From a virus (taxonomy: Duplodnaviria; Heunggongvirae; Uroviricota; Caudoviricetes): a stretch of 34,999 nt of DNA. Shown piece after piece: positions 22,373 to 34,999 of this stretch. Below the pieces are notes generated by a model, which saw only the letters and a list, made by a program, of their open reading frames with translations, did not search any database and was not told the DNA's origin. The stretch spans positions 64,001 to 98,999 of IMG/VR virus record IMGVR_UViG_3300023174_000099. One strand, 5' to 3'. Each line of letters opens with the position of its first letter. Within the stretch, counting starts at the first letter, position 1. The translations under genes were made by a program, and so were the position numbers.

Positions 22373-25300
22373 TTATACTGTTAAGCCCGGAAGCTGTGTA
22401 TTATCTATACGCTGTTGGTAGTATGTCAATGTGCGGATGTGGCCGTTGAGGGACGCGGCGGCCCCAAAATCAAACTTGCCAAGAGTTGCATATGCAAGCG
22501 TCGTTGGAACTGTGCCAGACGTATCAACTGAAACGGCGGCTCCGTTGGCGCAGGCGGCAAAGTCATTTGTCTTGTAGGCATAAGCCAGTGTTGGGGATAG
22601 GTTAGCGTTTGTGCCAATGTTCGATTGTACAACGCCGCCGACAACAGTTGCCGTAAACGCTGTGTTGATCGTCATTTGATGCCGATTATTGGAAGAAGCG
22701 GCGCCGTCTTGGAACGAAATCACGTTGGAACCTGTGGACGTAACAGTGTCAACGCTTGCAACCATCGTCCCCTCGCTCTGGTTGTACCAGTTTGAGAAGT
22801 TCGTGCCGGTCATCACCGCCACGTCAGCCGCGCGGATGACCGTGGCTGTCGCAGTTGGAATAGCACTAGTAGCAAAAGCACCTTGCTCAAGCTGTGGTAA
22901 ACCAATGCGAACTGTTACATCAACAGTTGCGTTTTGCGCAACTGTAAAGCCAGCACGAGGAGATGCACCTGTTGTTCCTGCATCAGTAAATGTGCGGGTA
23001 CTGACTACTCTCTGTCTAATAAGTGGTGCATTCGTTATGTTAGTTATCGACACAGATGCGTTGTCATTGAATCCAGGAGTACCGTAAAGTAAGTTGGTGG
23101 CTGAAGTAAACCCAGTAAAGTTACCACTTATTAGGCGATAGTAGGCGCTTTGCGTCCAAGTCTGGTTTTGAGCAGCAGTAATATTTACTATATCATACGT
23201 GATATCAACATATTGCGTGCCAGCGGCAGTGTTTGTACCAAACACACGAGCATCTATATAAGGGATGCCATCTTCTGTTCCAGTTCCGACGAAGTGTATG
23301 GAAATTCCATTAACAGGTGAACCACTACCAGTGCGTGCGTAGTTTGTGGGACTAGTACCTGGTGCGCCAGCTACAGCACCTACCATAGAACTGTTGCGAA
23401 TAGAATTTGTGCGTTGTTCTTCTAGCAGCAGACCTAGTGGAGCTTGCGTGATCGGATTGTAGTCGAAGCGTGGGCCATAGTAGGCTGCCGTAGTTGTGGG
23501 AACATAAGTGCTTGGAACAGTCTGGTAAGTGACTTGCTCAAGCTGCGCTCCCCAGACGAAAATGCCAGAAGTGCCATCGCCGGTATAGGACGATGGTGAG
23601 CTTGTGTTGTTGAGGGAGAGACGGATTTGCAGGCTGCCCGAGACGGTGGTAACCACAGGAACCGCAATTGAGCAGCGATACCATCCACCACCAGCTGGCG
23701 TGATGGTGGATGTAACAGTGGCAGACGGCGTCCCTGCGGTGCCAGCAGTAAGGTCAAAGCCGGCGATGAGGTTAGCGCCGGCAGGGCCGACACCGGTGGC
23801 AATAAGTTGAAGAAACGTGCGTTCAGCCGCTTTGGCGTAGACGCTTAAAATATAAAATTGGCCAGCGGTTACAGAAAAACTAACGAAGGTGAAATGCCCC
23901 GTAGTGACAGCCGTGTTCTCGACCAACTTATCTGCCGTGGTCGTGCCATCCGGCGACGTTGTCGCGTTGGCCGTTACAGATCCGTTGGACTTCGTCCACG
24001 CCGCGTTGTCAAACTCCTCCGACCGCAGTACCAGATTGTTCGGCGCGTAGGTCAAGCGTCCAGTGCTGTCAATTAGTGTAGCATTTGAAACACGAGAAAA
24101 AGTGATACGACTATCTAGTGTTCCAGATAGGAAATCAAGATTTAGCAACGTCGACAGAGTCTGCAACTGCAAGTTAGGGATACGCTGTGGATAGTAAACG
24201 AGTGAACGGATGTGGCTGTTTATCAAGTCGCTAGTAGGAGTGTTATATCCAATATTTAACATATCTAACACTGGAACAGCGCCACTAGAATCAGTCCCGG
24301 ATAAAATACCATTGAACGCAGCAGCAAAATTATTGGTTTGATAAGCAGTGGCTACAGTCCGTGGTATTCCTGGTGTATATGCACCTCCCATAGTAATAGA
24401 TGCTTGATCGACACCATTTAAACGAACAAGATTCTGTGCAGATGCAGTAGATACGAAAAACTCATTACTATTCTGCGAAGTGTTATTCGCCTGAATGCGG
24501 GCAGCGTACACGGAAGGAAATCTGTTTGATCCGACAATCGGGTTTATATAACTTGCAACGAATGTTCCTTCCTTCTGATTATACCAGCTAGAGAAGTTTG
24601 TTCCTGTCATTGACGCGTTATCAGCTGATCTTGTAACAGTAGACGCTATAGTAGGTATATAGCTAGTAGCAAAGGATGCCGCCTCAACCTGCGCGCCCCA
24701 AATTAGAATGCCAGATGTTCCGTTTCCTACTGTGGCTACTGAATCCCTAATCGCAATCCTTGCACTTCCCGTTGCGCTAACTCCAGCAGTGGTAAAGGTC
24801 AGTGTAAATCTATACCAACCATTTCCAAAAGGAGTTGATGTTGATGATGCATTTGTAAATGTACCCCCAACAGTTGGAGCTGTAACAATAGATCCATCAA
24901 CTAGTGAATACCTAACTCTTGCGAAGTTAGTCGTTCCAGTTCCTTCTGAAAAATACAACTCAATACGGTTAAACTCTGCTTGTTTTGCAAATACACTGAA
25001 TGTTAAAGTTGCCCCAGCAGTATGCGGTATATTTTGTCGAACTACACCATGCGTAATAGCCGTTAAATCTCCGCCATTGTTGGGTATAGCTTTTTCTGCT
25101 GTAGTCGTACCATCAGGTGCCTCGGCGGAGTTCACAGTTAATGTGGTATGATCTTTAAACCACGCCCCATTGTCGAACTGCTCCGAGTGTGTAGCCAAGT
25201 TCGTCCGCTGATCCTCGATCAGCAGACCATCTGGCGCTAGGGTAACGGGATCGAAATCAAAACGCGGACCATAGTAAGCCGAAGCAGCTGTTTGATTGTA

Positions 25301-26011
25301 TGCTGATGGCTGTGTTTGATAGGTTACAAGTTCAAACTGCGCGCCCCATATGAATAGACCGCTGGTACCGTTTCCAGAGAAAGTTGCGACGCTATTTTGA
25401 TCACCGGGAAGCACAAAGGCATCAAAAATAATCGAGGCAGCTGTAGGGCCTCCGGTTCCCGTTATACCAATTCTCCACCAGCCATCTCCTACATTTGTAG
25501 CCGATACACCTCTAAAGGTTCCAGCACCCACAACTCCTCCCACAGTAGTACCTGTAGATGTATCTAAGCTTCCAAGAAATCCGTTTGATGGATTGGCGTT
25601 GTCCAGGCATCTAAGCCTGATTGATCTGTACTCAGCAGCCTTAACATAAATACTTGCGCTCACTTGCGAGCCAGCTGGAACGGCTATTATTTGCCGAACG
25701 TAATGTTCACTACTAGCCACTGAGGGAATTATCTTTTCGGCAGTAGTTGTACCGTTGGGTGCCGTAGTGGCATTAACGGTAGTAGTTACGGCCGCTTTAC
25801 CCCACCCCACATCATTAAACTCTTCTGAGCGCAGTGCCAAGTTGTTTGGCGCGTAAGTTATGCGTCCAGTTCTATCAATTATCGTAGCATTACTGCCCCG
25901 AGTGAACGTAACACGGCTGTCTAATGTTCCACTTAAGAAATTAAGGTTCAGAGACGGTATATTGGCCCTAATGGAAGTACCACTAAGTAATATTGCAATA
26001 CGTCGAAACAT
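22373..26011 (-). CDS. Virion fibre/adhesin (head-spike-fibre-like, carbohydrate-binding beta-sandwich domains), tandem duplication of a ~600-aa module
   Basis: The motif set LNL.FLSGTLDSR.TF.R.SNAT / NL.LRSEEF / YYGPRFD..P.T...GLL.E.QRTN / TGTNFS.WYNQ.EGT / HIR.L.YY occurs twice. Junction near 24150. Confidence 0.75.
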   Translation of the reverse strand: MFRRIAILLSGTSIRANIPSLNLNFLSGTLDSRVTFTRGSNATIIDRTGRITYAPNNLALRSEEFNDVGWGKAAVTTTVNATTAPNGTTTAEKIIPSVASSEHYVRQIIAVPAGSQVSASIYVKAAEYRSIRLRCLDNANPSNGFLGSLDTSTGTTVGGVVGAGTFRGVSATNVGDGWWRIGITGTGGPTAASIIFDAFVLPGDQNSVATFSGNGTSGLFIWGAQFELVTYQTQPSAYNQTAASAYYGPRFDFDPVTLAPDGLLIEDQRTNLATHSEQFDNGAWFKDHTTLTVNSAEAPDGTTTAEKAIPNNGGDLTAITHGVVRQNIPHTAGATLTFSVFAKQAEFNRIELYFSEGTGTTNFARVRYSLVDGSIVTAPTVGGTFTNASSTSTPFGNGWYRFTLTFTTAGVSATGSARIAIRDSVATVGNGTSGILIWGAQVEAASFATSYIPTIASTVTRSADNASMTGTNFSSWYNQKEGTFVASYINPIVGSNRFPSVYAARIQANNTSQNSNEFFVSTASAQNLVRLNGVDQASITMGGAYTPGIPRTVATAYQTNNFAAAFNGILSGTDSSGAVPVLDMLNIGYNTPTSDLINSHIRSLVYYPQRIPNLQLQTLSTLLNLDFLSGTLDSRITFSRVSNATLIDSTGRLTYAPNNLVLRSEEFDNAAWTKSNGSVTANATTSPDGTTTADKLVENTAVTTGHFTFVSFSVTAGQFYILSVYAKAAERTFLQLIATGVGPAGANLIAGFDLTAGTAGTPSATVTSTITPAGGGWYRCSIAVPVVTTVSGSLQIRLSLNNTSSPSSYTGDGTSGIFVWGAQLEQVTYQTVPSTYVPTTTAAYYGPRFDYNPITQAPLGLLLEEQRTNSIRNSSMVGAVAGAPGTSPTNYARTGSGSPVNGISIHFVGTGTEDGIPYIDARVFGTNTAAGTQYVDITYDIVNITAAQNQTWTQSAYYRLISGNFTGFTSATNLLYGTPGFNDNASVSITNITNAPLIRQRVVSTRTFTDAGTTGASPRAGFTVAQNATVDVTVRIGLPQLEQGAFATSAIPTATATVIRAADVAVMTGTNFSNWYNQSEGTMVASVDTVTSTGSNVISFQDGAASSNNRHQMTINTAFTATVVGGVVQSNIGTNANLSPTLAYAYKTNDFAACANGAAVSVDTSGTVPTTLAYATLGKFDFGAAASLNGHIRTLTYYQQRIDNTQLPGLTV

Positions 26012-26542: not shown

Positions 26543-28393
26543 TTATACTGTTAAACTTGGTAGTTGCGCATTAGCCCAACGAACGGGGTAGTAGCTGATG
26601 CTCCTAAGGTGGCCGTTTAGATAGTTACCTGATCCACTCCAGTTGGAGCCTAAGTACATACGATTCGATGCCGTATTAACGATACCCACAGTATCCGTAC
26701 GCGCTGCCTGTCCACCTAGGCTTTCACCGAAGTTATTTACTGCATATGCAAACGCATTTTTTATTGGCACCGCGACATTGGCGACGGAAAACGTGGTTAT
26801 ATCGCCAGCTTGTCCTGTACCGCCGACAACCAAATTAGCACCACGAAATGAGTTTCCGCTAGAGTAATTGCCATACATACTGTTGTTAAACGTGTTATCA
26901 GATATGGCATAGGGCAAACTTGTACTATTCGCACCAGCAACTTGATTACATTCTACAACAACCGTCCCCTCACTCTGATTGTACCAGCTAGAGAAGTTAG
27001 TGCCGGTCATCGAAGCATTGTCGGCTGCACGCGTGGACGTGGAGGCCGCGGTGGGGATGTAGCTGGTGGCAAACGCGCCGAGTTCGGTCTGTGCACCCCA
27101 GACATAAAAACTGTCCGTTCCAGTGCCAGCGATATTGCCGTTGCCTCCGGCATCTGTCGGATAGAGTTTCAAGCCAACCGACGTAAAAGCACCCGCGCTG
27201 GTGAATGTCACGGAACACCTAAACCAGCCGTTTCCTGCCGGCGTAATCGACGCTGCCGTTGCACCTCCCGCAGTAGACGCAGTTACTGCGGTGAGGTTGA
27301 ATTGCCCCACTTGAGTGCCAAATCCGGTAGCGTCGTTCTGGATGCGTATAAAGGGAGTTGCAGCGGCCTTAAGATACGTTGTCGCAGTATAAGACACGCC
27401 AGCCGCGCCCGATGCGGGAGCGTAATATTGTAATGTGTGGAAGGTGGTGCTAGTATTCGCAACAAAGGCGTCGGCGTTGGTTGTTCCGTCAGGTGAAACT
27501 GTAGCGTTAGCCGTTATCGAAACTGCGCTCTTACTCCACGCTGCGTTATCAAACTGCTCCGAATACAGAGCCAAGTTGACCCGCTGCTCCTCGATCAGCA
27601 AACCTCTTGACGCTAGCGTGACTGGGTCGTAGTCGAATCGTGGGCCATAATAAGCCGAAGCAACTGTCTGCACGTATGTAGATGGCTGTGTCTGGTAAGT
27701 GACTTGCTCAAACTGTGCTCCCCATACGAATAGACCGCTGGTACCATCGCCCGTGTAGGATGACGGCGCGCTGGTGCTGTTGAGGGAGAGGCGAATTTGA
27801 TAGCCCCCAGTTGTTGCGGTAGAAACAGGATAAGCCATTGAACATCGATACCATCCATTACCTACATCAGTGATCGTAGACGTTACCGTGGCTGACGGTG
27901 CGCCCGCAGTACCGTTCGTAAGATCAAAACCGGCAATGTAATTGCCACTGCCAGGAGCTTGTTGCGTAACAATAAGTTGAATAAATGTGCGTTCTCCTGC
28001 CTTTGCATATACACTAAAAACGTAGATTTGTCCTAGTGCGGGGGAAGGTACAAAGGGTGTATTAGGAGAAATCCAATGCCCAGTAGTAGCCGCCGTGTTC
28101 TCGACCAACTTATCCGCAGTGGTAGTACCATTCGGTGCCACAGTGGCATTGGGCGTAATGGTAGAAGCCGTCTTTCCCCAGCTCGCGTTGTCAAATTCCT
28201 CTGATCGCAGAACAAGGTTGTTAGGCGCATAGGTAACTCGTCCAGTCGAATCGACTAGGGTAGCGTTCGAAGCGCGGCTAAAAGTGACGCGACTATCTAG
28301 GGTCGTTCCGGCTAGGAAATTAAGGCTTAACGTTTTAATTAATGGCTTGTAAGTGCTTCCAACTAGGAAGCCAAGCGATATTGGTTTTGTCAT
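26543..28393 (-). CDS. Virion fibre/adhesin, single-module paralogue of 22373..26011
   Basis: Same motif set once (616 aa), with visible DNA-level similarity to both modules of the larger gene. Confidence 0.75.
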   Translation of the reverse strand: MTKPISLGFLVGSTYKPLIKTLSLNFLAGTTLDSRVTFSRASNATLVDSTGRVTYAPNNLVLRSEEFDNASWGKTASTITPNATVAPNGTTTADKLVENTAATTGHWISPNTPFVPSPALGQIYVFSVYAKAGERTFIQLIVTQQAPGSGNYIAGFDLTNGTAGAPSATVTSTITDVGNGWYRCSMAYPVSTATTGGYQIRLSLNSTSAPSSYTGDGTSGLFVWGAQFEQVTYQTQPSTYVQTVASAYYGPRFDYDPVTLASRGLLIEEQRVNLALYSEQFDNAAWSKSAVSITANATVSPDGTTNADAFVANTSTTFHTLQYYAPASGAAGVSYTATTYLKAAATPFIRIQNDATGFGTQVGQFNLTAVTASTAGGATAASITPAGNGWFRCSVTFTSAGAFTSVGLKLYPTDAGGNGNIAGTGTDSFYVWGAQTELGAFATSYIPTAASTSTRAADNASMTGTNFSSWYNQSEGTVVVECNQVAGANSTSLPYAISDNTFNNSMYGNYSSGNSFRGANLVVGGTGQAGDITTFSVANVAVPIKNAFAYAVNNFGESLGGQAARTDTVGIVNTASNRMYLGSNWSGSGNYLNGHLRSISYYPVRWANAQLPSLTV

Positions 28394-28488: not shown

Positions 28489-29217
28489 CTAGAGTCTTAG
28501 GATTTCCCATCTGCCGTCCATGTGTTCTACAAGTGCGGTCTTTGACTCTACCCAGTCTCCGTCGTTCATATAGATAATATCATTTACGGTCTTTATCTCG
28601 GCATAATGAATGTGTCCGCAGATGACTCCGTCATAACCTTTTCGCTTGGCGTAGGCTGTAATGGTTAGCTCGAACTCGAAAATGAAATTGATCGCTTTCT
28701 TGACGCGATGTTTCAGCCACTTGCTAAGAGACCAGTATCCGAAGCCGAGTCGGTGCCTTATCCAGTTGAATCGGCTGTTTAAGTCGAGAATTATGTCATA
28801 GGCTTTGTCGCCCATGAAGCTGAGCCACGGTGACAGTCTAGTGATTCCGTCAAAGAGGTCTCCGTGTACGACGAGGTATTTCTTGCCGTCTAGGCCTTCG
28901 TGAACGATCTGATTGCAGATTTTTACGTTTCCGAAGTTGGCAGCGTATCGAATCATGGGTCTGAGGAACTCGTCGTGGTTTCCTGCGACGTAGATAATCT
29001 GGGTTCCTTTGCGGGACTTCTTGAGAAGGGTTCGGACCACATCAGTGTGGCTGTTTTTCCATTTGAACTTATTCTGCTGAATCTTCCATGCGTCTATAAT
29101 ATCCCCGACTAGGTATATTTTTTCGCTTTCTACGGTTTTGAGAAACTCGTTGAGTTCTGCGGCTTTCGAGTCTTTCGAGCCAAGATGAACGTCACTAATA
29201 AAAATTGATTTGTACAT
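28489..29217 (-). CDS. Calcineurin-like metallophosphoesterase, UDP-2,3-diacylglucosamine diphosphatase (LpxH/YbbF)-like family
   Basis: SDVHLG, VGDIID, AGNHD, VHGD.FD, ICGHIH, YMNDGDWVE. Confidence 0.88.
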   Translation of the reverse strand: MYKSIFISDVHLGSKDSKAAELNEFLKTVESEKIYLVGDIIDAWKIQQNKFKWKNSHTDVVRTLLKKSRKGTQIIYVAGNHDEFLRPMIRYAANFGNVKICNQIVHEGLDGKKYLVVHGDLFDGITRLSPWLSFMGDKAYDIILDLNSRFNWIRHRLGFGYWSLSKWLKHRVKKAINFIFEFELTITAYAKRKGYDGVICGHIHYAEIKTVNDIIYMNDGDWVESKTALVEHMDGRWEILRL

Positions 29218-29237
29218 AGGTCTCCTCCTTAAGTGGC

Positions 29238-29266
29238 ATTATACTAGAGTTGGGTTTAATTGTCAA
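29238..29266 (-). promoter_or_regulatory. Consensus sigma70 promoter for the metallophosphoesterase
   Basis: TTGACA-17-TATAAT, then AAGGAGGAG and ATG 29217. Confidence 0.85.
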
Positions 29267-29338
29267 TCTTTTTTTAGGTGGGGTACTGGGAGCGACGGTT
29301 AGAATAGTTCTTGACAGTTGGGGAGAAAAATTTAGTTG

Positions 29339-29367
29339 TTGACAAAACCGCCCCTTTATGCTATAAT
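29339..29367 (+). promoter_or_regulatory. Consensus sigma70 promoter, divergent from the previous one
   Basis: TTGACA-17-TATAAT; ATG follows 6 nt later. Confidence 0.85.
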
Positions 29368-29373
29368 CATTTC

Positions 29374-29958
29374 ATGATAAAGCATTGGACAATCGAGGAA
29401 GAGCAGACATTAAAGTCTATGAAAGAAGCAGGAGCCGATTTTTACGAAATCGCCCAGGAATTAAATAGAAGTGACGAAGCTATAAGGACTAGGTGGAAGA
29501 GACTAAGGGCTCGTGAGGGTAAAATTTCGCATATTGGGTGGAGTGAAGAAGAAATTGCATTACTGCACGAGCCATTATCCTATGAAGAACTAGTTCCTAA
29601 ACTAGGGAAAAGTAAGAGATCAATTCAGTCAATCTGTGAGAAGCTGGGGATAAGCAAGAGGTACCCTGGGGCTAATAATATTGGCACAATGAATAGAAGT
29701 TTACCTACCATACTATATTTGGTAGACTTTGGAAGTTTTAAAAAAGTAGGTATTACTCAAGTAGGAATTGAGGAAAGATTAAAGCAGGACGGTAACTATA
29801 ATATACTAGACTATTGCGAGTTAGATACAGATGCTGCTGTAGAAACTGAAAAAGAAATTTTAAAAAATATGCGACCATATTTGGTGCGAGGAACTGTAAG
29901 AAAAGGCTCTACTGAGTGCTTTGACTATCCCTGCGCCCAACTATCAGATTTACTCTAA
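29374..29958 (+). CDS. Putative homing endonuclease-like protein: W(T/S)xEE helical repeats plus GIY-YIG-like C-terminus
   Basis: HWTIEEEQTL and GWSEEEIALL; LYLVDFGSFKKVGITQ..IEERL. Same architecture as 1892..2674 minus the zinc ribbon. Start reassigned from 29311 to ATG 29374. Confidence 0.65.
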   Translation: MIKHWTIEEEQTLKSMKEAGADFYEIAQELNRSDEAIRTRWKRLRAREGKISHIGWSEEEIALLHEPLSYEELVPKLGKSKRSIQSICEKLGISKRYPGANNIGTMNRSLPTILYLVDFGSFKKVGITQVGIEERLKQDGNYNILDYCELDTDAAVETEKEILKNMRPYLVRGTVRKGSTECFDYPCAQLSDLL

Positions 29959-29999
29959 GTGGTACGTACTCGGTAGTCCGAGCGCATATATGTAAGACT

Positions 30000-30101
30000 A
30001 GTCTAATAACCGGGCCTATAGGTGTCAAGCAATTTCTTTCACATTACAAATTTGTAATGCAAATTATTTTTGTTGACTTCCCTTCCTCGCCGGCCTATAA
30101 A
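30000..30101. promoter_or_regulatory. Module A: leftward promoter, palindrome, rightward promoter
   Basis: Minus TTGACA(30028-30023)-17-TAGACT; CATTACAAATTTGTAATG at 30042-30059; plus TTGACT(30073)-17-TATAAA(30096). Confidence 0.8.
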
Positions 30102-30126
30102 GGGACATCAACAGGGAGCAAGACAG

Positions 30127-30279
30127 ATGTTTAAGAAATTCATTGCCCTTCGCATGTATCGCTATTATCAGCGCAAGGTTAAGCAAGAGCCTACTCTTGC
30201 CAACTATAGCGAGATGGCCAAATGAAGCAATCGCTGGTATCGGTTGGAATATCCCAACGCAATCCAACGGGCATGGTAA
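30127..30279 (+). pseudogene. Small ORF with an in-frame TGA (32 aa, or 50 codons if read through)
   Basis: MFKKFIALRMYRYYQRKVKQEPTLANYSEMAK*SNRWYRLEYPNAIQRAW*. GGGAG SD upstream; the final TAA overlaps the next gene's AAGGAG. Confidence 0.45.
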
Positions 30280-30291
30280 GGAGAAAAGAAA

Positions 30292-30501
30292 ATGAAGATT
30301 ACTTATGAAGAATGGAATTGCGATGGTATTTGGGCCGCCCATGGGGAGGACCAAATGCTTTGCATCAAAAAGGATAGAGGGAGCATTATCGTAGGAATTG
30401 AAAACTGCGATGGCACTATTGAGAATTCATGCACATATGCCGAATCCGAATATATGGAAGCCTTTTCAGACTTCCTAAAGAGAGGCACAGACAACGAATG
30501 A
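30292..30501 (+). CDS. Hypothetical pre-early protein (69 aa)
   Basis: AAGGAG SD; the stop is followed immediately by a module hairpin. Confidence 0.75.
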   Translation: MKITYEEWNCDGIWAAHGEDQMLCIKKDRGSIIVGIENCDGTIENSCTYAESEYMEAFSDFLKRGTDNE

Positions 30502-30504
30502 TAG

Positions 30505-30639
30505 ACTTAGGGCCGATTCGGCCCTAAGTTGGCGCCGATTTTACCAGGCCCCAGCGAATTTGTCAAGCGAAAAAATGCAGATTACAAATTTGTAATGCAA
30601 ATCTTTTCTGTTGACGTGGCCAGCCTGTAAGCCTATAAA
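30505..30639. promoter_or_regulatory. Module B: hairpin, GCGCC, leftward promoter, palindrome, rightward promoter
   Basis: ACTTAGGGCCG-att-CGGCCCTAAGT at 30505-30529; minus TTGACA(30566-61)-17-TAAAAT(30543-38); palindrome 30581-30596; plus TTGACG(30611)-17-TATAAA(30634). Confidence 0.85.
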
Positions 30640-30666
30640 GGGACATAACCAAGGGAGAACGACGAA

Positions 30667-30930
30667 ATGTTTGACATTACCTCAAATAAAGGTTTTCACA
30701 TGACTTTTGCTAACGGCTGGACTGTTAGCGTGCAATGGGGCAAAGGCAACTATTGCGATAACAAATATATCGGAAAATATGGGGAGACTCCCGCACCTAG
30801 CAAGGATGCAGAAATTGCGGCATGGGATGCCAATGGCGAATGGATGGTATTTGGCAATGATGATAATATGAAGGGATATTGCAGCCCTGATGAGGTTGCG
30901 GCCTTTATCGCAAAGATTGCAGCAATGTGA
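30667..30930 (+). CDS. Hypothetical pre-early protein (87 aa)
   Basis: AAGGGAG SD downstream of the module B promoter. GFHMTFANGWTVSVQWG...AEIAAW...GY..PDEVA looks like a common phage hypothetical family. Confidence 0.8.
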   Translation: MFDITSNKGFHMTFANGWTVSVQWGKGNYCDNKYIGKYGETPAPSKDAEIAAWDANGEWMVFGNDDNMKGYCSPDEVAAFIAKIAAM

Positions 30931-30933
30931 ACA

Positions 30934-31059
30934 GAGGTGTGTTACTTCGGTAACACACCTCGCGCCGATTTTAGCAGGTCGCGCAAAATTTGTCAAGCGA
31001 AAAAATCGCACATTACAAAAAAATAAGGGATTGCCATCCTGCTAGGGATTGCCTATAAA
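30934..31059. promoter_or_regulatory. Module C: UUCG hairpin, GCGCC, leftward promoter, half-palindrome, rightward promoter
   Basis: GAGGTGTGTTAC-ttcg-GTAACACACCTC at 30934-30961; minus TTGACA(30996-91)-17-TAAAAT(30973-68); plus TTGCCA(31031)-17-TATAAA(31054). Confidence 0.85.
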
Positions 31060-31080
31060 GAGTCATCAACAACAAAGGAA

Positions 31081-31563
31081 ATGGAAATGCCCTACGTAAT
31101 CTTTGATCTTGACGGCACGGTGATTGATAGCAGCCACCGCAAGGCAACACGTATAGATGGTTCGCTTGATTTAGAACATTGGCTGGAAAACAACACGCCA
31201 GAAAAGATTGCGCTTGACAAGCTTTTGCCGCTGGCGCGCGTGATGAAAATTCTGGCCAATACTTGCCATGTTATCGTCTGCACGGCCCGTGCAATTCAAC
31301 AGGCCGATTTGGATTTCATGGCCGCTAACGGCCTGAAATACAACGCTTTTCTGTCGCGTGAACATGGCAACAATGAAAGCGACGAAAGCCTGAAAGAGCG
31401 TCTTTTGTCCAACTATTTCAAGGGCTTGGGCCTTGCCAGCGTTGCAGACGCTAAGGCAATCTTTTTCGATGACAATCTGGCGGTGCTGGATGCTATCGCA
31501 AAGCTTGGCGTTACTTGCTATGATGCAACTATCGCTAATAATCGCCTAGCAAGGAGGGTTTGA
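31081..31563 (+). CDS. dmp: HAD-family phosphatase, T5 deoxynucleoside-5'-monophosphatase homologue
   Basis: IFDLDGTVIDSSHR...DGSLDL...D.LLPL...VCTAR...FFDDN..VL parallels T5 Dmp as recalled. The start may be ATG 31087 by SD spacing. Confidence 0.85.
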   Translation: MEMPYVIFDLDGTVIDSSHRKATRIDGSLDLEHWLENNTPEKIALDKLLPLARVMKILANTCHVIVCTARAIQQADLDFMAANGLKYNAFLSREHGNNESDESLKERLLSNYFKGLGLASVADAKAIFFDDNLAVLDAIAKLGVTCYDATIANNRLARRV

Positions 31564-31566
31564 GAA

Positions 31567-31632
31567 ATGGATTTCTTCACTATCATCATGATTTTGTTGG
31601 CAATTGTCATGGTGCTGCTATTCGTTGACTAA
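31567..31632 (+). CDS. 21-aa single-TM micropeptide
   Basis: MDFFTIIMILLAIVMVLLFVD. AAGGAGG upstream; the stop abuts the module hairpin. Below the ORF-track cutoff. Confidence 0.65.
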   Translation: MDFFTIIMILLAIVMVLLFVD

Positions 31633-31633
31633 G

Positions 31634-31739
31634 ATTTAGGGCCGAAATGGCCCTAAATTTGCGCCAAAATTTTAGCAGGTTTTTTCAGGTCTGTCAAGCG
31701 TTTTTTTCGCTTGACAGAATCTTTTTTCGCTGCTACCCT
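31634..31739. promoter_or_regulatory. Module D1: hairpin, GCGCC, back-to-back promoters
   Basis: ATTTAGGGCC-gaaat-GGCCCTAAAT; minus TTGACA(31697-92)-17-TAAAAT(31674-69); plus TTGACA(31711)-17-TACCCT(31734). The two -35 boxes form CTGTCAAGCG-T7-CGCTTGACAG. Confidence 0.8.
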
Positions 31740-31743
31740 TTCA

Positions 31744-31805
31744 GGGGTGGGAGGGAGGGCCAGGCGCGCTGGCACTGTATTAGCAGGCTAATACAGTGCC
31801 AGCGC
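31744..31805 (+). ncRNA. ORF-less unit: G-quadruplex motif plus 18-bp hairpin
   Basis: GGGGTGGGAGGGAGGG at 31744-31759; GCGCTGGCACTGTATTAG-cagg-CTAATACAGTGCCAGCGC at 31766-31805; lies between convergent promoters. Confidence 0.45.
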
Positions 31806-31807
31806 CG

Positions 31808-31909
31808 ATTTTAGCAGATCGCGTAAAATTTGTCAAGCGAAAAAATGCAGATTACAAATTTGTAATGTTGAAAATATGTCTTGCGCTGCGGCCTGCCTTT
31901 CCCTATATT
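31808..31909. promoter_or_regulatory. Module D2: leftward promoter, palindrome, rightward promoter
   Basis: Minus TTGACA(31836-31)-17-TAAAAT(31813-08); palindrome 31851-31866; plus TTGCGC(31881)-17-TATATT(31904). Confidence 0.8.
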
Positions 31910-31919
31910 CAATTCATGG
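31831..31919 (+). repeat. 89-bp perfect direct repeat, copy 1
   Basis: Identical to 32454..32542 by direct comparison. Confidence 0.9.
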
Positions 31920-31959
31920 GAAGCGGATGGGCCGCCTACCATGACAAGGAAACTAGAAT

Positions 31960-32280
31960 ATGACGACTGCAACTAAGGTGACTGAAAAGAACTATACGGA
32001 AGCGCAAGAGGCAATCTTGCTTGCCGCTGGCATTATCGACAATGCGAAGGCATTGGAAATCGCCGCCAAGATTGGCAAGGACGTGAAATCGGTTCGTGCG
32101 AAGGCCGTTCGCATGGGCATTTACAAGGCCGCTGAAAAGAAAAGCAAGAGCGGTGGCGCTGTCGAAAGCAAGGAAAAGATTGCTGCCGATATTGCCTTGC
32201 TTGTGGGCAAGAACATGGAAGGCCTTGAAAAGGCTCCCAAATTGGCCTTGCAAATCATCCGGGAAAAGCTTTCGGCTTAA
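31960..32280 (+). CDS. A2: T5 A2-like DNA-binding pre-early protein
   Basis: NYTEAQ...EIAAKIGK...SVRAKAVRMGIYK.AEKKSK.GG...K...IA......LEKA.K.AL parallels T5 A2 (SVRSKL...YQKSDKPRKVGGG...LESAKLETL, recalled). AAGGA SD. Confidence 0.75.
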   Translation: MTTATKVTEKNYTEAQEAILLAAGIIDNAKALEIAAKIGKDVKSVRAKAVRMGIYKAAEKKSKSGGAVESKEKIAADIALLVGKNMEGLEKAPKLALQIIREKLSA

Positions 32281-32301
32281 CCCATTGAAAAGGAAAGAGA
32301 A

Positions 32302-32332
32302 AGGCCGGGAGAAATCCCGGCCTAACTTTTTT
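32302..32332 (+). terminator. Terminator-like GAAA hairpin after A2
   Basis: AGGCCGGGA-gaaa-TCCCGGCCT-aac-TTTTTT. The same stem recurs at 34494-34513. Confidence 0.7.
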
Positions 32333-32353
32333 GTTAGAAAATGATTTTTTCGC

Positions 32354-32382
32354 TTGACAGGCCCGCGAAAGCCTGTTATAAT
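32354..32382 (+). promoter_or_regulatory. Perfect sigma70 promoter with no downstream ORF
   Basis: TTGACA-17-TATAAT. The spacer carries the inverted repeat CAGGC...GCCTG. Paralogue at 34703..34731. Confidence 0.8.
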
Positions 32383-32453
32383 GGGACAGGCGCCGAAAAA
32401 TTGCGCCAGAAATTTTGCACGCTACTTTAAATATAACATGCGAGGTTAGGCGC

Positions 32454-32542
32454 TGTCAAGCGAAAAAATGCAGATTACAAATTTGTAATGTTGAAAATAT
32501 GTCTTGCGCTGCGGCCTGCCTTTCCCTATATTCAATTCATGG
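32454..32542 (+). repeat. 89-bp perfect direct repeat, copy 2 (leftward -35, palindrome, rightward promoter)
   Basis: Identical to 31831..31919. Palindrome 32474-32489; TTGCGC(32504)-17-TATATT(32527). Confidence 0.9.
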
Positions 32543-32559
32543 ACAAGGAAGGAAAACAA

Positions 32560-32844
32560 ATGACGGTTCTGCAAAAAATCAAGGAAATGCCCGCTCCCGA
32601 ATTGGGCGGCTGGCTGGGAATGTGCCTTATTCATGGCGCAACTATTCCGACAACTGCCGGGAATATTCTTGGCTATTCCACTACTTTGCCGCCATTGTCG
32701 ATGGTGTTGCTTGTCTGGTCTGGCCTTGCATTGTTTCTGTGGCGCGCGATTGCCCGGAATGATTTTCTCTATACTGTTAGCAATGCTGTCGGATTTGTTC
32801 TGAATAGCGTATTGCTTGCAATTATTGTTTTTCCACTAGCATAA
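32560..32844 (+). CDS. Three-helix membrane protein, SemiSWEET/PQ-loop-like
   Basis: 94 aa from ATG 32560 (AAGGAAGG SD). GWLGM.LI..ATIP...W.GL.LF...AI.RND.LY..SNAVGF.LN..LL resembles the MtN3/PQ-loop pattern but lacks the PQ. Confidence 0.6.
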   Translation: MTVLQKIKEMPAPELGGWLGMCLIHGATIPTTAGNILGYSTTLPPLSMVLLVWSGLALFLWRAIARNDFLYTVSNAVGFVLNSVLLAIIVFPLA

Positions 32845-32853
32845 GGAAAGAAT

Positions 32854-33006
32854 ATGCACAAACACTGTAAAGGCTGCAAATTCCACTGGAAGGGTGGCGC
32901 AATCCCTAAATATCAGGATTGGTGCAGCAAATTTAGCGATATTGCATCGCACAAAGTAGGGCATTGCCTGCTAATGAAAGGAAAAGAAAATGTCCCTATC
33001 AATTGA
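32854..33006 (+). CDS. 50-aa Cys/His-rich peptide, probable metal binder
   Basis: MHKHCKGCKFHWKGGAIPKYQDWCSKFSDIASHKVGHCLLMKGKENVPIN; AAGGA SD overlapping the previous stop. Confidence 0.7.
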   Translation: MHKHCKGCKFHWKGGAIPKYQDWCSKFSDIASHKVGHCLLMKGKENVPIN

Positions 33007-33052
33007 TTCGCGGCCTGACCGTCGCACTATAATTGAAAGGAAACAACAATGA
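32990..33052 (+). CDS. Possible 20-aa peptide
   Basis: MSLSIDSRPDRRTIIERKQQ; AAAGGA SD; its TGA overlaps the next ATG (ATGA). Confidence 0.4.
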   Translation: MSLSIDSRPDRRTIIERKQQ

Positions 33053-33159
33053 TTTCATGGGTGGGCTGGAAAGGGCCTTTATTTAATCGCCATGATGTGC
33101 TGCTTCATGGTTATACAAGCTTTAAGCTTGGCCCCTTCATCTATTATCATTTCTGGTAA
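33049..33159 (+). CDS. 36-aa aromatic-rich peptide
   Basis: MISWVGWKGPLFNRHDVLLHGYTSFKLGPFIYYHFW; AAAGGA SD; the stop overlaps the next SD. Confidence 0.6.
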   Translation: MISWVGWKGPLFNRHDVLLHGYTSFKLGPFIYYHFW

Positions 33160-33170
33160 AGGAAAGAACA

Positions 33171-33422
33171 ATGAACGTGACTTTCAATTCCGATACTATC
33201 GCAATGCTTATTCATGAGATTGACGATATGCTTTGCAATGCCGACATTACTGCTGGCATGTGCGATGATTTATCCAATCTTCTCAATGCCTTGATGGCGA
33301 TTGGCGAAACAGGCTCTATCGTTATTGTGCCGGATGATAATAATATTGGGGATGATTGGGATGATGAAGACGATGGGCCAGATTCTCCCACCCCTAGCGG
33401 CTGGACTCTAATCAAAGCCTAA
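33171..33422 (+). CDS. Highly acidic hypothetical protein (83 aa)
   Basis: AAAGGA SD; Asp-rich C-terminus (DDNNIGDDWDDEDDGPD); followed by a module palindrome. Confidence 0.75.
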   Translation: MNVTFNSDTIAMLIHEIDDMLCNADITAGMCDDLSNLLNALMAIGETGSIVIVPDDNNIGDDWDDEDDGPDSPTPSGWTLIKA

Positions 33423-33428
33423 AGATCC

Positions 33429-33562
33429 GGTGTGTTGCTGTATTAATACAGCAACACACCCTGGCGCCAAAATTTTAGCAGGATTCCGTTGCGCTGTCAA
33501 GCAAAAAATTTGCTCTGAATGAAAATATTTTTCTTGTTTCTGCCGAATTTTTCTGTTATAAT
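33429..33562. promoter_or_regulatory. Module F: 32-bp perfect palindrome, GGCGCC, divergent promoters
   Basis: GGTGTGTTGCTGTATT|AATACAGCAACACACC at 33429-33460; minus TTGACA(33500-495)-17-TAAAAT(33477-72); plus TTGTTT(33534)-17-TATAAT(33557). Confidence 0.8.
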
Positions 33563-33614
33563 GGATTGATGCCTGCTCGCCAAGGTGTATTAGTCAGCTA
33601 GGACACTGGCGCCG
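33563..33614 (+). ncRNA. Small-RNA-like unit 1
   Basis: GGATTGATGC...TGTATTAGTCAGCTA...CTGGCGC directly after a TATAAT; no ORF; homologous to the minus-strand unit at 34553..34638. Confidence 0.45.
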
Positions 33615-33717
33615 ATTCTAGCACGCCTGCCTAGGCGTTGTCAAGCGAAGAAAAATTCGCTTTTGGATGCAATTTGGTTCTTTCCCCTGTTGCAATGCCT
33701 GCCGGTTCTGGTAATGT
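33615..33717. promoter_or_regulatory. Module G: leftward promoter and weaker rightward promoter
   Basis: Minus TTGACA(33644-39)-18-TAGAAT(33620-15); plus TTGCAA(33690)-16-TAATGT(33712) with an extended TG. Confidence 0.6.
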
Positions 33718-33761
33718 CTCTTTGTCGGCAGCGAGTCGGCAGCAACTAGGGATTACCCAAA

Positions 33762-34481
33762 ATGGGCAAGCAAGCTACTTTCCTGATTATCGACACGGAA
33801 ACCACCGTGCGCGGCAATGTTGCCGATTTCGGCGCTATCGTGGCCAATCGCAAGGGTGAAATTCTCGCATCTTGTGGCGTGTTGGTTCGGGAATTTTATC
33901 TTGATCGGGAAAATAACCCGCTATTTCATGATGTTACGGCTGACCCACTTTGGGGCAAGGCCAATCTTCCCCGCCGTTATGCGGCATATGACGCAATGCT
34001 GCAAGATGGCCGCCGAATGCTGGCAAGTGTTGCCGCCGTCAATCGCTGGCTTGCCAAGGTAAACGCCAAGTATTCGCCTGTTGCCACCGCCTATAATAAG
34101 GCTTTTGACTGGGATAAACTGGACAAAAGCGGTATTGATTGCCATATGTTTGAACAATCGTTCTGCCTCTGGCACGCTGCCGCTGATAAGTATGTGAAAA
34201 CAAAGGCTTTTCGGGACTTCATTCTGGAAAACCATTGTTTCAATCCCCCAACTAAAAAGGGCAACATGACTTTTAAGACTGATGCTGAAGTCATGGCGCG
34301 TTTTATTACTGGCAATGCCGATATGCCGAATGAGCCGCATACTGCACTTGAAGATGCCCGTGATTACGAATTGCCTATTCTTCTTGATATTATCAAGGCC
34401 AAAGACAAGGCAAAGTATTTGCAGCCAAAGCCTTATTCTTGGCAAGGTGTTCAAGTCAAGGATTGGTTCAAGCCAAAGTAA
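33762..34481 (+). CDS. DEDDh (DnaQ-like) 3'-5' exonuclease
   Basis: ExoI LIIDTETT, ExoII AYNKAFD, ExoIII EPHTALEDA. Confidence 0.88.
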   Translation: MGKQATFLIIDTETTVRGNVADFGAIVANRKGEILASCGVLVREFYLDRENNPLFHDVTADPLWGKANLPRRYAAYDAMLQDGRRMLASVAAVNRWLAKVNAKYSPVATAYNKAFDWDKLDKSGIDCHMFEQSFCLWHAAADKYVKTKAFRDFILENHCFNPPTKKGNMTFKTDAEVMARFITGNADMPNEPHTALEDARDYELPILLDIIKAKDKAKYLQPKPYSWQGVQVKDWFKPK

Positions 34482-34493
34482 AGGCAAAGTAAA

Positions 34494-34513
34494 GGCCGGG
34501 AGAAATCCCGGCC
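34494..34513. terminator. GAAA hairpin after the exonuclease, identical to the post-A2 stem
   Basis: GGCCGGGA-gaaa-TCCCGGCC; no U-tract on the plus strand. Confidence 0.55.
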
Positions 34514-34528
34514 AATACTTGCACGCCT

Positions 34529-34549
34529 TATTGATAATGATTCTCAATA
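34529..34549. promoter_or_regulatory. Fur-box-like inverted repeat 1
   Basis: TAT-TGATAAT-G-ATTCTCA-ATA: 13 of 14 matches to the 7-1-7 Fur consensus TGATAAT-N-ATTATCA. Confidence 0.6.
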
Positions 34550-34552
34550 GCA

Positions 34553-34638
34553 CGCGCCAGCGGGTGCCTTAGCTGACTAATACAGGCCACGCGAGTGTGT
34601 TACCCCACTAGGACACCATCCCGAACGCGCATCAATCC
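34553..34638 (-). ncRNA. Small-RNA-like unit 2
   Basis: Minus strand GGATTGATGC...TGTATTAGTCAGCTA...CTGGCGC directly after TTGACA(34668-63)-18-TAAAAT(34644-39). Confidence 0.45.
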
Positions 34639-34702
34639 ATTTTACCACGTTTGCCCGGCTTTTGTCAATAGAATAAATTTGCATCGGACAAAATTTTTCC
34701 TA

Positions 34703-34799
34703 TTGACAGGCCCGCACAAGCCTGCTATAATAGGGGCGCAGGCGCCAAAAATTTGTCAAACTGCGCCAAAATTTTACCACGTCTAGCGGGACGTGTCAA
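34703..34799. promoter_or_regulatory. Convergent promoter pair with about 39 bp between the -10 boxes
   Basis: Plus TTGACA(34703)-17-TATAAT(34726); minus TTGACA(34799-94)-17-TAAAAT(34776-71); two GCGCC-AAAA copies between them. Confidence 0.8.
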
Positions 34800-34832
34800 C
34801 AGAAAAATCGCACATTACAAAAAAGAAATGGC

Positions 34833-34886
34833 TTGACGGCACGAAAAAATCCCGCTACCATATATGGGTGGGAGGGCGGGGGAGGG
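34833..34886 (+). promoter_or_regulatory. Promoter followed by a five-run G-quadruplex motif
   Basis: TTGACG-17-TACCAT(34856-61), then GGGTGGGAGGGCGGGGGAGGG at 34866-34886. Confidence 0.7.
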
Positions 34887-34897
34887 CCGAAAATCCT

Positions 34898-34918
34898 TAT
34901 TGATAATGCGTCGCAATA
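34898..34918. promoter_or_regulatory. Fur-box-like site 2
   Basis: TATTGATAATGCGTCGCAATA; shares CCTTATTGATAATG and CAATAGC with site 1. Confidence 0.5.
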
Positions 34919-34999
34919 GCAGCAATGGCTGGGCCCGATATAATGCATTATGTTCAATAGATTTATCCCAATGAATCCAATGGGTTAGGTCGCTCCCAC

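Follow-up and report, generated by a model that had tools for sequence, protein, structure and literature searches.

Two homologous units lie in inverted orientation on either side of an exonuclease gene in the window (the whole 34,999-nt stretch of DNA analyzed), and are interpreted here, with moderate confidence, as two diverged copies of a convergent-promoter regulatory module giving short transcripts. Each unit opens with a strong extended -10 promoter of the host (sigma-70) type, and the first of its three sequence blocks is the discriminator together with the predicted first transcribed bases. The second block corresponds to the left arm plus loop of the phage's generic gene-end hairpin (GGTGTG...CACACC), in a degenerate copy, and the third is a generic GGCGCC box that in unit 1 doubles as the predicted start region of an opposing strong promoter. 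Unit 2 would comprise one old full copy and one recent partial copy, placed behind the exonuclease gene in the opposite orientation to unit 1, and its transcription would run into the hairpin terminator that it shares with that gene. At unit 1, the module may act by promoter competition or collision, since two polymerases could not both hold and clear promoters with predicted start sites about 40 bp apart; if the promoters fire as predicted, interference would presumably be their purpose. Such a module might insulate or time the neighboring gene cassettes, the exonuclease included, and release short transcripts of about 40-140 nt beginning with AUG.

Two units around an exonuclease gene

Unit 1 (33563..33612, +) directly follows TGTTATAAT at 33554-33562 and consists of block 1 GGATTGATGC (33563-33572), 12 nt and a G, block 2 TGTATTAGTCAGCTA (33586-33600), GGACA, and block 3 CTGGCGC (33606-33612); behind block 1, its body is a hairpin of the GGTGT...ACAC family (33578-33611) with the GGCGCC box. 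Unit 2, on the minus strand, directly follows TGGTAAAAT at 34647-34639 and has block 1 GGATTGATGC (34638-34629), 43 nt and a C, block 2 TGTATTAGTCAGCTA (34584-34570), AGGCACCCG, and block 3 CTGGCGC (34560-34554). The preliminary description of two homologous, inverted units around the exonuclease gene is borne out by the sequence, and nhmmer, run against the record plus 13 loci, aligned unit 1 with unit 2 at an E of 0.0026. The exact 10-mer of block 1 and the exact 15-mer of block 2 each occur only at the two units in the whole 98,999-bp record, and a pair sharing a 15-mer with a 10-mer at most 70 nt upstream was obtained in 2 of 200 first-order Markov simulations of the window; the likeness of the units exceeds chance. 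Their reported placement at the same offset behind different promoters also holds, as both directly follow the extended -10 of a strong sigma-70-type promoter.

The constant ends and variable insert attributed to the units are a product of alignment choice: the first ~56 nt of unit 2 are collinear with unit 1 without a gap. The 43-nt "insert" belongs to a diverged full copy of the unit body (copy A, 34590..34638, -), which is identical to that of unit 1 at 32 of 46 positions, gap-free, and is followed by a partial, near-exact copy of the unit 1 3' part, blocks 2 and 3 (copy B, 34554..34589, -). Copy B holds the exact 15-mer of unit 2 and forms an inverted repeat with unit 1 (21 nt, 90%). The statement that neither unit has an ORF is true of long conserved ORFs, but an ORF of 10 codons begins 7 nt behind the -10 in each. 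The units are also overlapped by mechanical ORFs of 35, 63, 73, and 96 aa, none with a Pfam or PHROG match. Short-RNA transcription is plausible because the units are homologous, stand at the same offset behind strong promoters, and contain no long conserved ORF, and because unit 1 is conserved.

The gene between the units (33762..34481, +; 239 aa) appears, from its fold only, to encode a DEDDh-type 3'-5' exonuclease. The protein had no match among Pfam, NCBIfam, and PDB sequences and its PHROGs match was only to a family of unknown function; its AlphaFold model (pLDDT 82) gave a DnaQ-like DEDDh match, with 25 PDB chains at E <= 0.001, and D11, E13, D116, H193, and D198 are invariant across eight homologues.

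The promoter pair at unit 1 and the insertion of unit 2

The promoter of unit 1 (33534..33562, +) has a weak -35 (TTGTTT), a 17-nt spacer, and TATAAT with a TG extension, and a conserved A/T-rich stretch lies just 5' of it at 33510-33533. A head-on promoter (33615..33644, -; TTGACA, 18 nt, TAGAAT with TG) is directed back into unit 1, with the GGCGCC of block 3 as its start region. The -10 hexamers are face to face at 33557-33562 (+) and 33620-33615 (-), and unit 1 lies between these two predicted head-on promoters, whose start sites are a few tens of bp apart. A weak terminator-like hairpin (33643..33662, +; AAGCGAA / TTCGCTT with a short T run) was not called by the terminator scan; it is identical in the relatives L181 and L182 (33/33 for 33648-33680), while the 7.5-kb contig of run X7 is diverged from 33647 on.

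L181 and L182 count as one lineage, since their exonuclease genes show no difference (0 of 720). Compared with L181, fourfold sites in the window differ at 23 of 97 positions (24%), whereas unit 1 is identical at 49 of 50 positions and the head-on promoter at 31 of 35, the changes falling in the spacer and one in the -10; in the flanks of this island, identity drops to 6 of 21 and 34 of 82 positions. The hexamers of the head-on promoter are kept in L181 and L182 (TAAAAT there), with three spacer changes. In place of the unit 1 promoter these relatives have another promoter, different in sequence (TTGACC, 18 nt, TAGAAT), and the listed differences of X7, three of which fall in the unit 1 body, rebuild the TTGACC version, with TATAAT, before unit 1. 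The replacement promoters of L181, L182, and X7 all stand at an unchanged distance from block 1. Unit 1 is the resident, conserved copy of the module, although the low divergence of the island could reflect recent module exchange rather than selection.

Unit 2 is transcribed, by prediction, from 34639..34668 (-; TTGACA, 18 nt, TAAAAT with TG) and lies within a stretch (34520..34685) that L181 and L182 do not have (140 + 18 alignment columns), apart from a shared TTTTGTCA. The more distant relative G001 also has the insert-free layout, and the alignments indicate that unit 2 is a lineage-specific insertion of ~160 bp; unit 1 is kept in close relatives. No target-site duplication was seen at the insertion edges in the alignment with L181 and L182. 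A head-on partner promoter for unit 2 was not detected in the sequence or the promoter scan, so unit 2 cannot work by the type of interference suggested for unit 1. Between unit 2 and the G+C-rich hairpin that it has in common with the exonuclease gene (34494..34513, with a T-rich tail only on the - strand) is a palindromic element, CCTTATTGATAATGATTCTCAATAGCA (34526..34552), which has a second copy at 34895-34921 and two more at the record start, is conserved in G001 and G003, and is like the GAGAATCATTATCA repeats of the T5 injection-stop region.

The inverted orientation of the units around a single gene would suit an invertible or mobile cassette in which the units, as terminal inverted repeats or sites of recombination, would let the exonuclease gene be inverted or moved; inversion had been proposed. 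This is extremely improbable. Neither Resolvase (PF00239) nor Phage_integrase (PF00589) was matched in the 98,999-bp record, estimated by its collection at 89% completeness, while control genomes were matched. Inverted joints were sought in contigs of four runs, which can miss rare orientation forms: of the four joints, two skip a diverged part, two return to repeats, and none changes strand. The exonuclease gene keeps the same neighborhood in L028, G001, and G003, which have no unit at all, and L181 and L182 keep the gene with unit 1 and without unit 2; the missing target-site duplication also argues against mobility.

The units could instead be neutral relics, in which recombination mediated by the modules removed a gene and joined a promoter directly to a gene-end module, an "empty cassette" that was later copied once and had no function of its own. 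Consistent with this, the region is mosaic with breaks at hairpin/GGCGCC modules (in L182, all sequence separating the phosphatase gene from the exonuclease module is missing), close relatives differ in whether they have unit 2, and the unit-specific 5' part in X7, with 3 changes in 21 nt, is not below the contig average of 88 in 1,141. However, the promoter before unit 1 has been kept or rebuilt in three lineages, and 33563-33680 has only 5 changes in 118 nt against the 24% at fourfold sites, which makes a relic decidedly improbable.

Recurrence of the module and comparison with known systems

The promoter scan found 23 promoter-like sites in 29200-34999 compared to 10.4 +/- 3.3 in shuffles. 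On both strands they include sites with TG that match at 12/12 or 11/12, 33644-33615 and 34668-34639 being two of these. Nine (-)-strand promoters of the form TAWAAT, 1-3 nt, GGCGC are confined to the first 5-kb bin of the record and its last two, and most of those listed run directly into the hairpin that ends an upstream + strand gene. Blocks 2 and 3 are a degenerate member of this generic combination of gene-end hairpin and GGCGCC box, which has many occurrences in the early-gene-like region; one such gene-end module, in G003, can be aligned with the 3' part of unit 1 at 77%. Block 1 is the motif GGNNTGATGC, attached to promoters and likewise present behind the -10 of like modules in the distant relative G001; the three G001 modules begin GGGCTGATGCCC, GGGGTGATGCGC, and GGGTTTGATAGC after TATAAT, an older form of block 1.

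The early-gene-like region of the window contains at least three face-to-face promoter pairs, that of unit 1 among them; further pairs are at 32354..32459, with two GCGCC boxes between the -10 hexamers, and at 34703..34799, with 39 nt between the hexamers and conserved in L181. Pairs were found in the window and in seven of the eight related loci scanned (G000, L181, L182, L178 or G001 with three pairs, L028 with two, and L180; weaker in L183 and L185), with the -10 hexamers 26-55 nt apart and mostly two GCGCC boxes. A like module is used repeatedly by a group of T5-like lake phages. The layout in these uncultured relatives of T5 is unusual: the + strand early-region genes examined end at a hairpin facing a strong back-pointing promoter, and several promoters are head-on in the same region. 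If the modules control the timing or insulation of the first-expressed genes, then they offer a handle on infection staging in such phages, with practical value that is modest until host or expression data exist. The head-on promoters have no obvious product or partner gene, which is a point against the module as an explanation.

No homologue of the units was found in IMG/VR or the genome collection. The exact block 2 was present at 23 IMG/VR loci, none with the other blocks, and the -10 with block 1 at 67, none with block 2 or 3 in place; the neighboring promoter pattern had no IMG/VR match, the pattern of blocks 2 and 3 had no locus in the genome collection, and blastn with 31000-34999 had no match among GenBank phages. 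One IMG/VR locus, L017, has the 15-mer in a hairpin loop and is from an unrelated G+C-rich phage. The pattern of blocks 1 and 2 was found at 10 loci of the genome collection, all unrelated and four of them one mobile gene. A possible link to T5 by promoter motif was dropped, as the T5 left repeat had no match at <=2 mismatches. No description of such units was found in the literature on T5 early regions and phage non-coding RNAs.

Several known systems share features with the units. In coliphages 186 (pR-pL) and P2 (Pe-Pc), face-to-face lytic and lysogenic promoters show transcriptional interference. Unit 1 resembles 186 pR-pL in its strong head-on promoters a few tens of bp apart and its overlapping transcripts (here predicted), but the 186 and P2 promoters are a repressor-controlled switch of two gene sets, whereas the pairs here are without evident gene sets of their own, recur several times, and belong to a phage that shows no integrase. 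The cis-antisense pairs of IS10 (RNA-IN/RNA-OUT) and the P22 sar type have stable antisense RNAs that are terminated stem-loops; the convergent transcripts predicted for unit 1 similarly overlap by ~35-40 nt, including the 5' AUG of the sense RNA, while the predicted antisense transcript is neither stable nor terminated. Lambda nut and HK022 put are promoter-proximal antitermination elements of divergent operons, located before terminators and genes. The units, too, form a homologous pair, each a fixed short distance past an early promoter, the two promoters being of opposite orientation; however, unit 2 has no downstream gene and no conserved two-hairpin fold was seen.

The first-step-transfer DNA of T5 has inverted repeats arranged as IRC-spacer-IRD and IRD'-spacer-IRC' (Davison 2020, bioRxiv 10.1101/866236), which are, like the units, homologous, non-coding, inverted, and bracketing genes beside a repeat-rich injection-stop region. 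The T5 repeats are 131 bp long, have paired DnaA boxes, and are conserved across T5-like phages (Davison 2020, bioRxiv 10.1101/866236), while the units are 50-86 nt, confined to one lineage, and without a consensus DnaA box. The DnaA consensus TTWTNCACA has six matches in the record, is not enriched, and is absent from the region; only three one-mismatch boxes are in the region, none in a unit.

In the PeSL motifs of T4-like phages, the promoter points forward to the next gene, whereas the generic promoter here is directed backward, at the hairpin behind the previous gene, and at three sites it opposes a forward promoter head-on. PeSL and the modules here are not similar in sequence, and the phage here is T5-like rather than T4-like. 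PeSL, reportedly also described by Arbiol et al. in 2010, are composite terminator/promoter motifs and resemble the present modules in being short, combining a stem-loop with a promoter, and recurring between early genes (Comeau, Arbiol and Krisch 2014, PMC4122927). Both mark points of insertion, deletion, or replacement between relatives, here seen in L182 versus the window and in the unit 2 indel.

Candidate products of the units

An RNA of ~140 nt from promoter to terminator would be expected from unit 2 and one of ~100 nt from unit 1, and these could be functional small RNAs acting by base pairing, for example with a sense/antisense pair at unit 1 and the unit 2 RNA as a second sense copy titrating the antisense transcript. 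Unit 2 has a strong promoter, no conserved ORF, and a (-)-strand terminator (34513-34494, T-rich tail); as a whole, its RNA is predicted to fold better than shuffled sequence (z -3.26 and -2.51), and copy B is complementary at ~19 of 21 positions (90%) to the transcript of the unit 1 head-on promoter. However, the z-score of unit 2 stems from the palindrome and terminator, the unit cores are not more stable than shuffled sequence (z -0.06 and +0.84), the antisense RNA of unit 1 lacks stability and a terminator (z -0.71), and copy B has five indels in X7. Both a promoter and a terminator are predicted for unit 2; unit 1 has a promoter and only the weak hairpin, uncalled by the scan and not kept in X7. 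In the alignment of unit 1 with unit 2, one compensatory change keeps the outer stem (CGCCA/UGGCG to CGGGA/UCGCG) and one pair of that stem is broken, so that between these two units alone a stable fold kept by compensation was not found.

Rfam had no match at gathering score in the whole window or at the record start; with E up to 5, only two microRNA models matched in 33400-34999, far below thresholds and neither on a unit. A tRNA/tmRNA search found none. The small-RNA family that had been proposed does not hold up, the three blocks being generic promoter and gene-end motifs rather than specific to an RNA family, and there is no sign of a guide-like RNA in what are diverged copies of a promoter-plus-hairpin control module; functional small RNAs are accordingly considered unlikely. 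The case illustrates that what looks like a family of small RNAs can resolve into promoter and gene-end motifs when it is compared across relatives. The sole RNA run (X20) contained 0.06 of the sampled words and gave contigs at 34214-34384 and 34407-34585; the latter crosses the hairpin, and both carry no strand, end, or level information and could be DNA carry-over.

The 10-codon ORFs raise another explanation, that the units are a pair of tiny leaderless genes whose transcripts start at the A of AUG and encode a decapeptide M-x-x-R-x-G-V-L-V-x, with either the peptide being the product or its translation regulating in cis. In unit 1 the ORF is MPARQGVLVS (33569..33601, +), with the ATG at the predicted first transcribed base, and in copy A of unit 2 it is MRVRDGVLVG (34632-34600, -); the ATG is 7 nt after the -10 in both. 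Of the 12 nucleotide differences between the ORFs, seven are at third positions and six are silent (stop counted), and the single L181 change in the unit 1 ORF is silent. Equal length with at least 5 of 9 identical residues arose in 0.8% of 200,000 random-substitution trials (P 0.008), although the ORF had been noticed before this test was made. Across the record and 11 loci, an extended -10 with an ATG at 6-8 nt and a short ORF is found only in the units, plus a 2-codon case in L178/L169 (G001/G002).

On the other hand, the ATG belongs to the older motif GGNNTGATGC, and of the G001 modules, one has two codons after it, another has a far longer open frame, and the third lacks the ATG. X7 has an Ala to Asp replacement at codon 3, and other phage genes examined have what were read as Shine-Dalgarno-like sites. 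Beyond the units, the degenerate peptide pattern was not found in G000, G001, G003, G004, or G005, and its only two IMG/VR matches are chance ones inside unrelated coding sequence. Leaderless genes are therefore regarded as quite unlikely, and it is just as doubtful that strong early promoters with the predicted starts would have the peptide made in the first minutes of infection; if true, the decapeptide genes would be among the smallest phage genes known. The kept length of the ORFs and their 5 of 9 shared residues are a constraint that the convergent-promoter module does not need.

Anatomy of the two units

Unit 1 (33563-33612, plus strand) and unit 2 (34554-34638, minus strand) flank an exonuclease gene in inverted orientation, and the sequence and layout assigned to both in the preliminary description are exact on re-reading of the window. 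Each begins directly after an extended -10, which bears out a shared offset behind the promoter (TTGTTT, 17 nt, and TATAAT with TG for unit 1; TTGACA, 18 nt, and TAAAAT with TG for unit 2). The exact 10-mer after the -10 (block 1) and the exact 15-mer (block 2) are each confined to the two units across the whole record. Among 200 simulated windows, only 2 contained two stretches with a common 15-mer shortly behind a common 10-mer. Homology of the units is supported by their alignment (E 0.0026, nhmmer). The 43 nt once taken for a variable insert is the diverged unit body itself, as a gap-free collinear alignment fits best: the unit 1 body and the first ~56 nt of unit 2 are identical at 32 of 46 positions after the -10, with no gaps. 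The exact 15-mer farther along unit 2 is a second, partial copy. Unit 2 consists of copy A, which is old (70% identical to the unit 1 body), and copy B, which is recent (21 nt at 90%, plus CTGGCGC, which is block 3).

The units are real, and would be a new variant among repeated phage regulatory cassettes. The proposed family of guide-like small RNAs is rejected: the blocks are not peculiar to the units, the unit cores fold no better than shuffled sequence, and Rfam returned zero matches for the units. The good folding score of the whole unit 2 RNA is due to its palindrome and terminator. The statement that neither unit has an ORF holds only if 10-codon ORFs are set aside, for both units have one, with its ATG 7 nt past the -10. 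That the units encode the leaderless product of this ORF is unlikely, although 7 of the 12 differences between the two ORFs fall at third positions, and equal length with five of nine identical residues arose in 0.8% of random-substitution trials. The likeness was spotted post hoc; moreover, the ATG is part of a promoter motif that predates the units, and the related genome G001 has different frames after it, so the decapeptide is kept as a rival only.

The gene between the units (33762-34481, plus strand) encodes a 239-aa protein with zero matches in Pfam, NCBIfam, and PDB sequences. A structure model from eight homologues has a pLDDT of 82 and resembles the domains of oligoribonuclease, 3'hExo/ERI, RNase T, and DnaQ, and the DEDDh residues are invariant in these homologues; the name exonuclease therefore stands as a prediction from fold.

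Promoter and hairpin modules shared with the units

Promoter-like sites between 29.2 and 35 kb number 23, against 10.4 expected, and nine are near-consensus minus-strand promoters, though the genes of this region are all on the plus strand. These nine (30538-30566, 30968-30996, 31669-31697, 31808-31836, 32430-32459, 33472-33500, 33615-33644, 34639-34668, and 34771-34799) have TTGACA, 17-18 nt, TAAAAT or a close variant, and TG. The pattern TAWAAT, 1-3 nt, GGCGC marks nine minus-strand promoters, only in the first 5-kb bin of the record and its last two. Most of the listed promoters have GGCGC directly after the -10 and are directed straight at the hairpin terminating the upstream plus-strand gene, and many of these opposing hairpins belong to a GGTGTG...CACACC family. 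A perfect 89-nt direct repeat (31831-31919 and 32454-32542) includes a perfect 16-bp palindrome (ATTACAAATTTGTAAT) shortly before a promoter-like site; this palindrome also precedes the exonuclease gene in the related locus L028, and looks like an operator.

The blocks of the units recur in such modules. The stretch of unit 1 that starts at GGTGT, takes in CTGGCGCC, and reaches the next -10 gives a 77% alignment with a gene-end module of the related genome G003, so block 2 is the arm and loop of a hairpin, also predicted by folding, that is a degenerate member of the family. Block 3 is the generic GGCGCC box, which in unit 1 is the start region of a head-on promoter (33644-33615). In G001, whose terminase is 76% identical to that of the window, three face-to-face modules open with GGGCTGATGCCC, GGGGTGATGCGC, and GGGTTTGATAGC immediately after TATAAT, indicating that block 1 predates the units.

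A pattern search for forward promoters with a reverse promoter 8-75 nt further on recovers two pairs in the window (32354/32459 and 34703/34799), three in the related locus L181, three in G001, two in L028, one in G004, at least the unit 1 pair in L182, and weaker pairs in L183 and L185. In most pairs, two GCGCC boxes separate the -10 hexamers. The unit 1 pair of the window falls outside the pattern solely through its -35 (TTGTTT); with TTGACC as the -35, it is recovered in both L181 and L182.

Conservation, origin, and possible function

Contigs containing the window stretch or close relatives occur in two public runs labelled freshwater (X2 and X6) and in X7, labelled "metagenome" only. The exonuclease has 91% amino-acid identity in two metagenome contigs, L181 and L182, which are the same across the gene and therefore one lineage. 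Between the window and L181, 74 of 97 fourfold-degenerate sites of the exonuclease gene are identical (24% differ), compared with 49/50 positions in unit 1, 31/35 in the head-on promoter, 33/33 in the hairpin and tail after it, 6/21 in the forward promoter's spacer, and 34/82 in the exonuclease promoter and leader. The head-on promoter differs in its spacer and at one -10 position. The replaced forward spacer of L181 still belongs to a promoter (TTGACC, 18 nt, TAGAAT) at unchanged distance from block 1. In X7, a 7.5-kb DNA contig has the promoter version of L181; its unit 1 carries three changes within the initial 14 nt, 33577-33647 is free of changes, and the sequence diverges beyond 33647. 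No unit was found in 11 further loci of more distant gene-carrying relatives (nhmmer), in five whole records, which have generic modules only (blastn), or on direct reading of L028, G001, G003, and L183-L185. In L182 (2080-2210), the phosphatase gene together with a hydrophobic ORF of 21 codons (window 31567-31632) is followed directly by the module before unit 1; compared with window 31563-33470, ~1.8 kb of genes is thus missing from L182. Hairpins at the ends of genes show paired differences (TT/AA vs GG/CC) among the window, L181, and L182.

In L181 and L182 the exonuclease hairpin and a T run are followed directly by the next promoter, while the window has 140 + 18 additional alignment columns behind the hairpin, containing the palindrome, a GCGCCAG box, copies B and A, and the -10. 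The insertion of unit 2 is the derived state, because G001 has the short layout. It parted the hairpin from its plus-strand T run, leaving a T-rich tail on the minus strand only. Unit 2 is unchanged in X2 contigs and has five indels in copy B in an X7 contig.

Inversion of the exonuclease cassette by way of the two units had been suggested; that the units invert or move it is very improbable. Resolvase and Phage_integrase have zero matches in the record, none of the four listed contig joints changes strand, and distant relatives have the exonuclease gene in the same neighbourhood without units; on these grounds an invertible cassette was dropped. Close relatives also carry one unit without the other, and no target duplication was seen at the unit 2 insertion.

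The favoured reading, held with about even confidence, makes both units copies of a control module built on convergent promoters. Phages 186 and P2 and IS10 have well-established face-to-face promoters. In unit 1, the predicted start sites face each other ~40 bp apart, so two polymerases could not both hold and clear them; judging from this anatomy and from known facing promoters, both would fire, with interference as the purpose, and competition or collision might insulate or time the neighbouring cassettes. Unit 2 has no partner promoter, and may be a by-product of module shuffling now yielding a short, predicted terminated transcript. The nearest described counterpart is PeSL, reported (PMC4122927) as a composite terminator/promoter motif of T4-like phages marking sites of modular exchange; here, however, the promoter is directed backwards, and some are paired head-on. 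In T5 itself (bioRxiv 10.1101/866236), inverted non-coding repeats with paired DnaA boxes bracket genes beside the injection-stop region. The present region lacks any consensus DnaA box. A narrow literature search found no description of head-on modules of this kind in T5-like phages.

Genome setting

The window (34,999 bases) is the terminal part of a virus record of 98,999 bp, labelled linear by its collection. The final 126 bases (window 34874-34999) copy record positions 11-136 and are preceded by a G run, so either the assembly is circularly closed or the genome is terminally redundant, with its repeats collapsed. Structural genes (terminase, protease-capsid fusion, tape measure, and tail proteins) occupy 1-29217 on the minus strand. 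Small plus-strand genes run from 29.3 kb to the window end and continue through the initial 3.3 kb of the record; among them are a Myb-like gene that includes an endonuclease part, a HAD phosphatase of polynucleotide-kinase type (31081-31563), D5-like regulators, and the 239-aa exonuclease gene. The genome is probably T5-like, and the PHROG matches to the D5-like regulators agree.

The first-entering DNA of T5 has a 5'-deoxynucleotidase gene, a repeat-rich injection-stop region, and a nick. The core GAGAATCATTATCA is common to the injection-stop repeats and the palindrome at 34526-34552, and also resembles the iron-regulator (Fur) box consensus. The palindrome (TTATTGATAATG...CAATAGCA) recurs at 34895-34921 and at record positions 33-58 and 201-226, so that four copies cluster around the junction of the record ends, and it is retained in G001 and G003. 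The T5 record annotates strand nicks with the consensus 5'-NPu pGCGCN-3'; two nick contexts read A^GCGCAGGG, and one adjoins a hairpin. GGCGC boxes at 33461-33468, 33606-33613, and elsewhere have G^GCGCCAGGG or a similar sequence on one strand, beside hairpins, and might be nick sites, which is no more than a lead. Outside the window, L187 (record ~2080-2700) has zero Rfam matches and comprises ~600 hairpin-rich bases behind a strong promoter, with no evident ORF, opening with a GATTGATGG...CCATCAATC stem. The adjacent genes at 22373-26011 and 26543-28393 have the same tail-protein PHROG matches (5939, 34853, and 11600), and seem to be paralogues encoding a tail fibre or spike.
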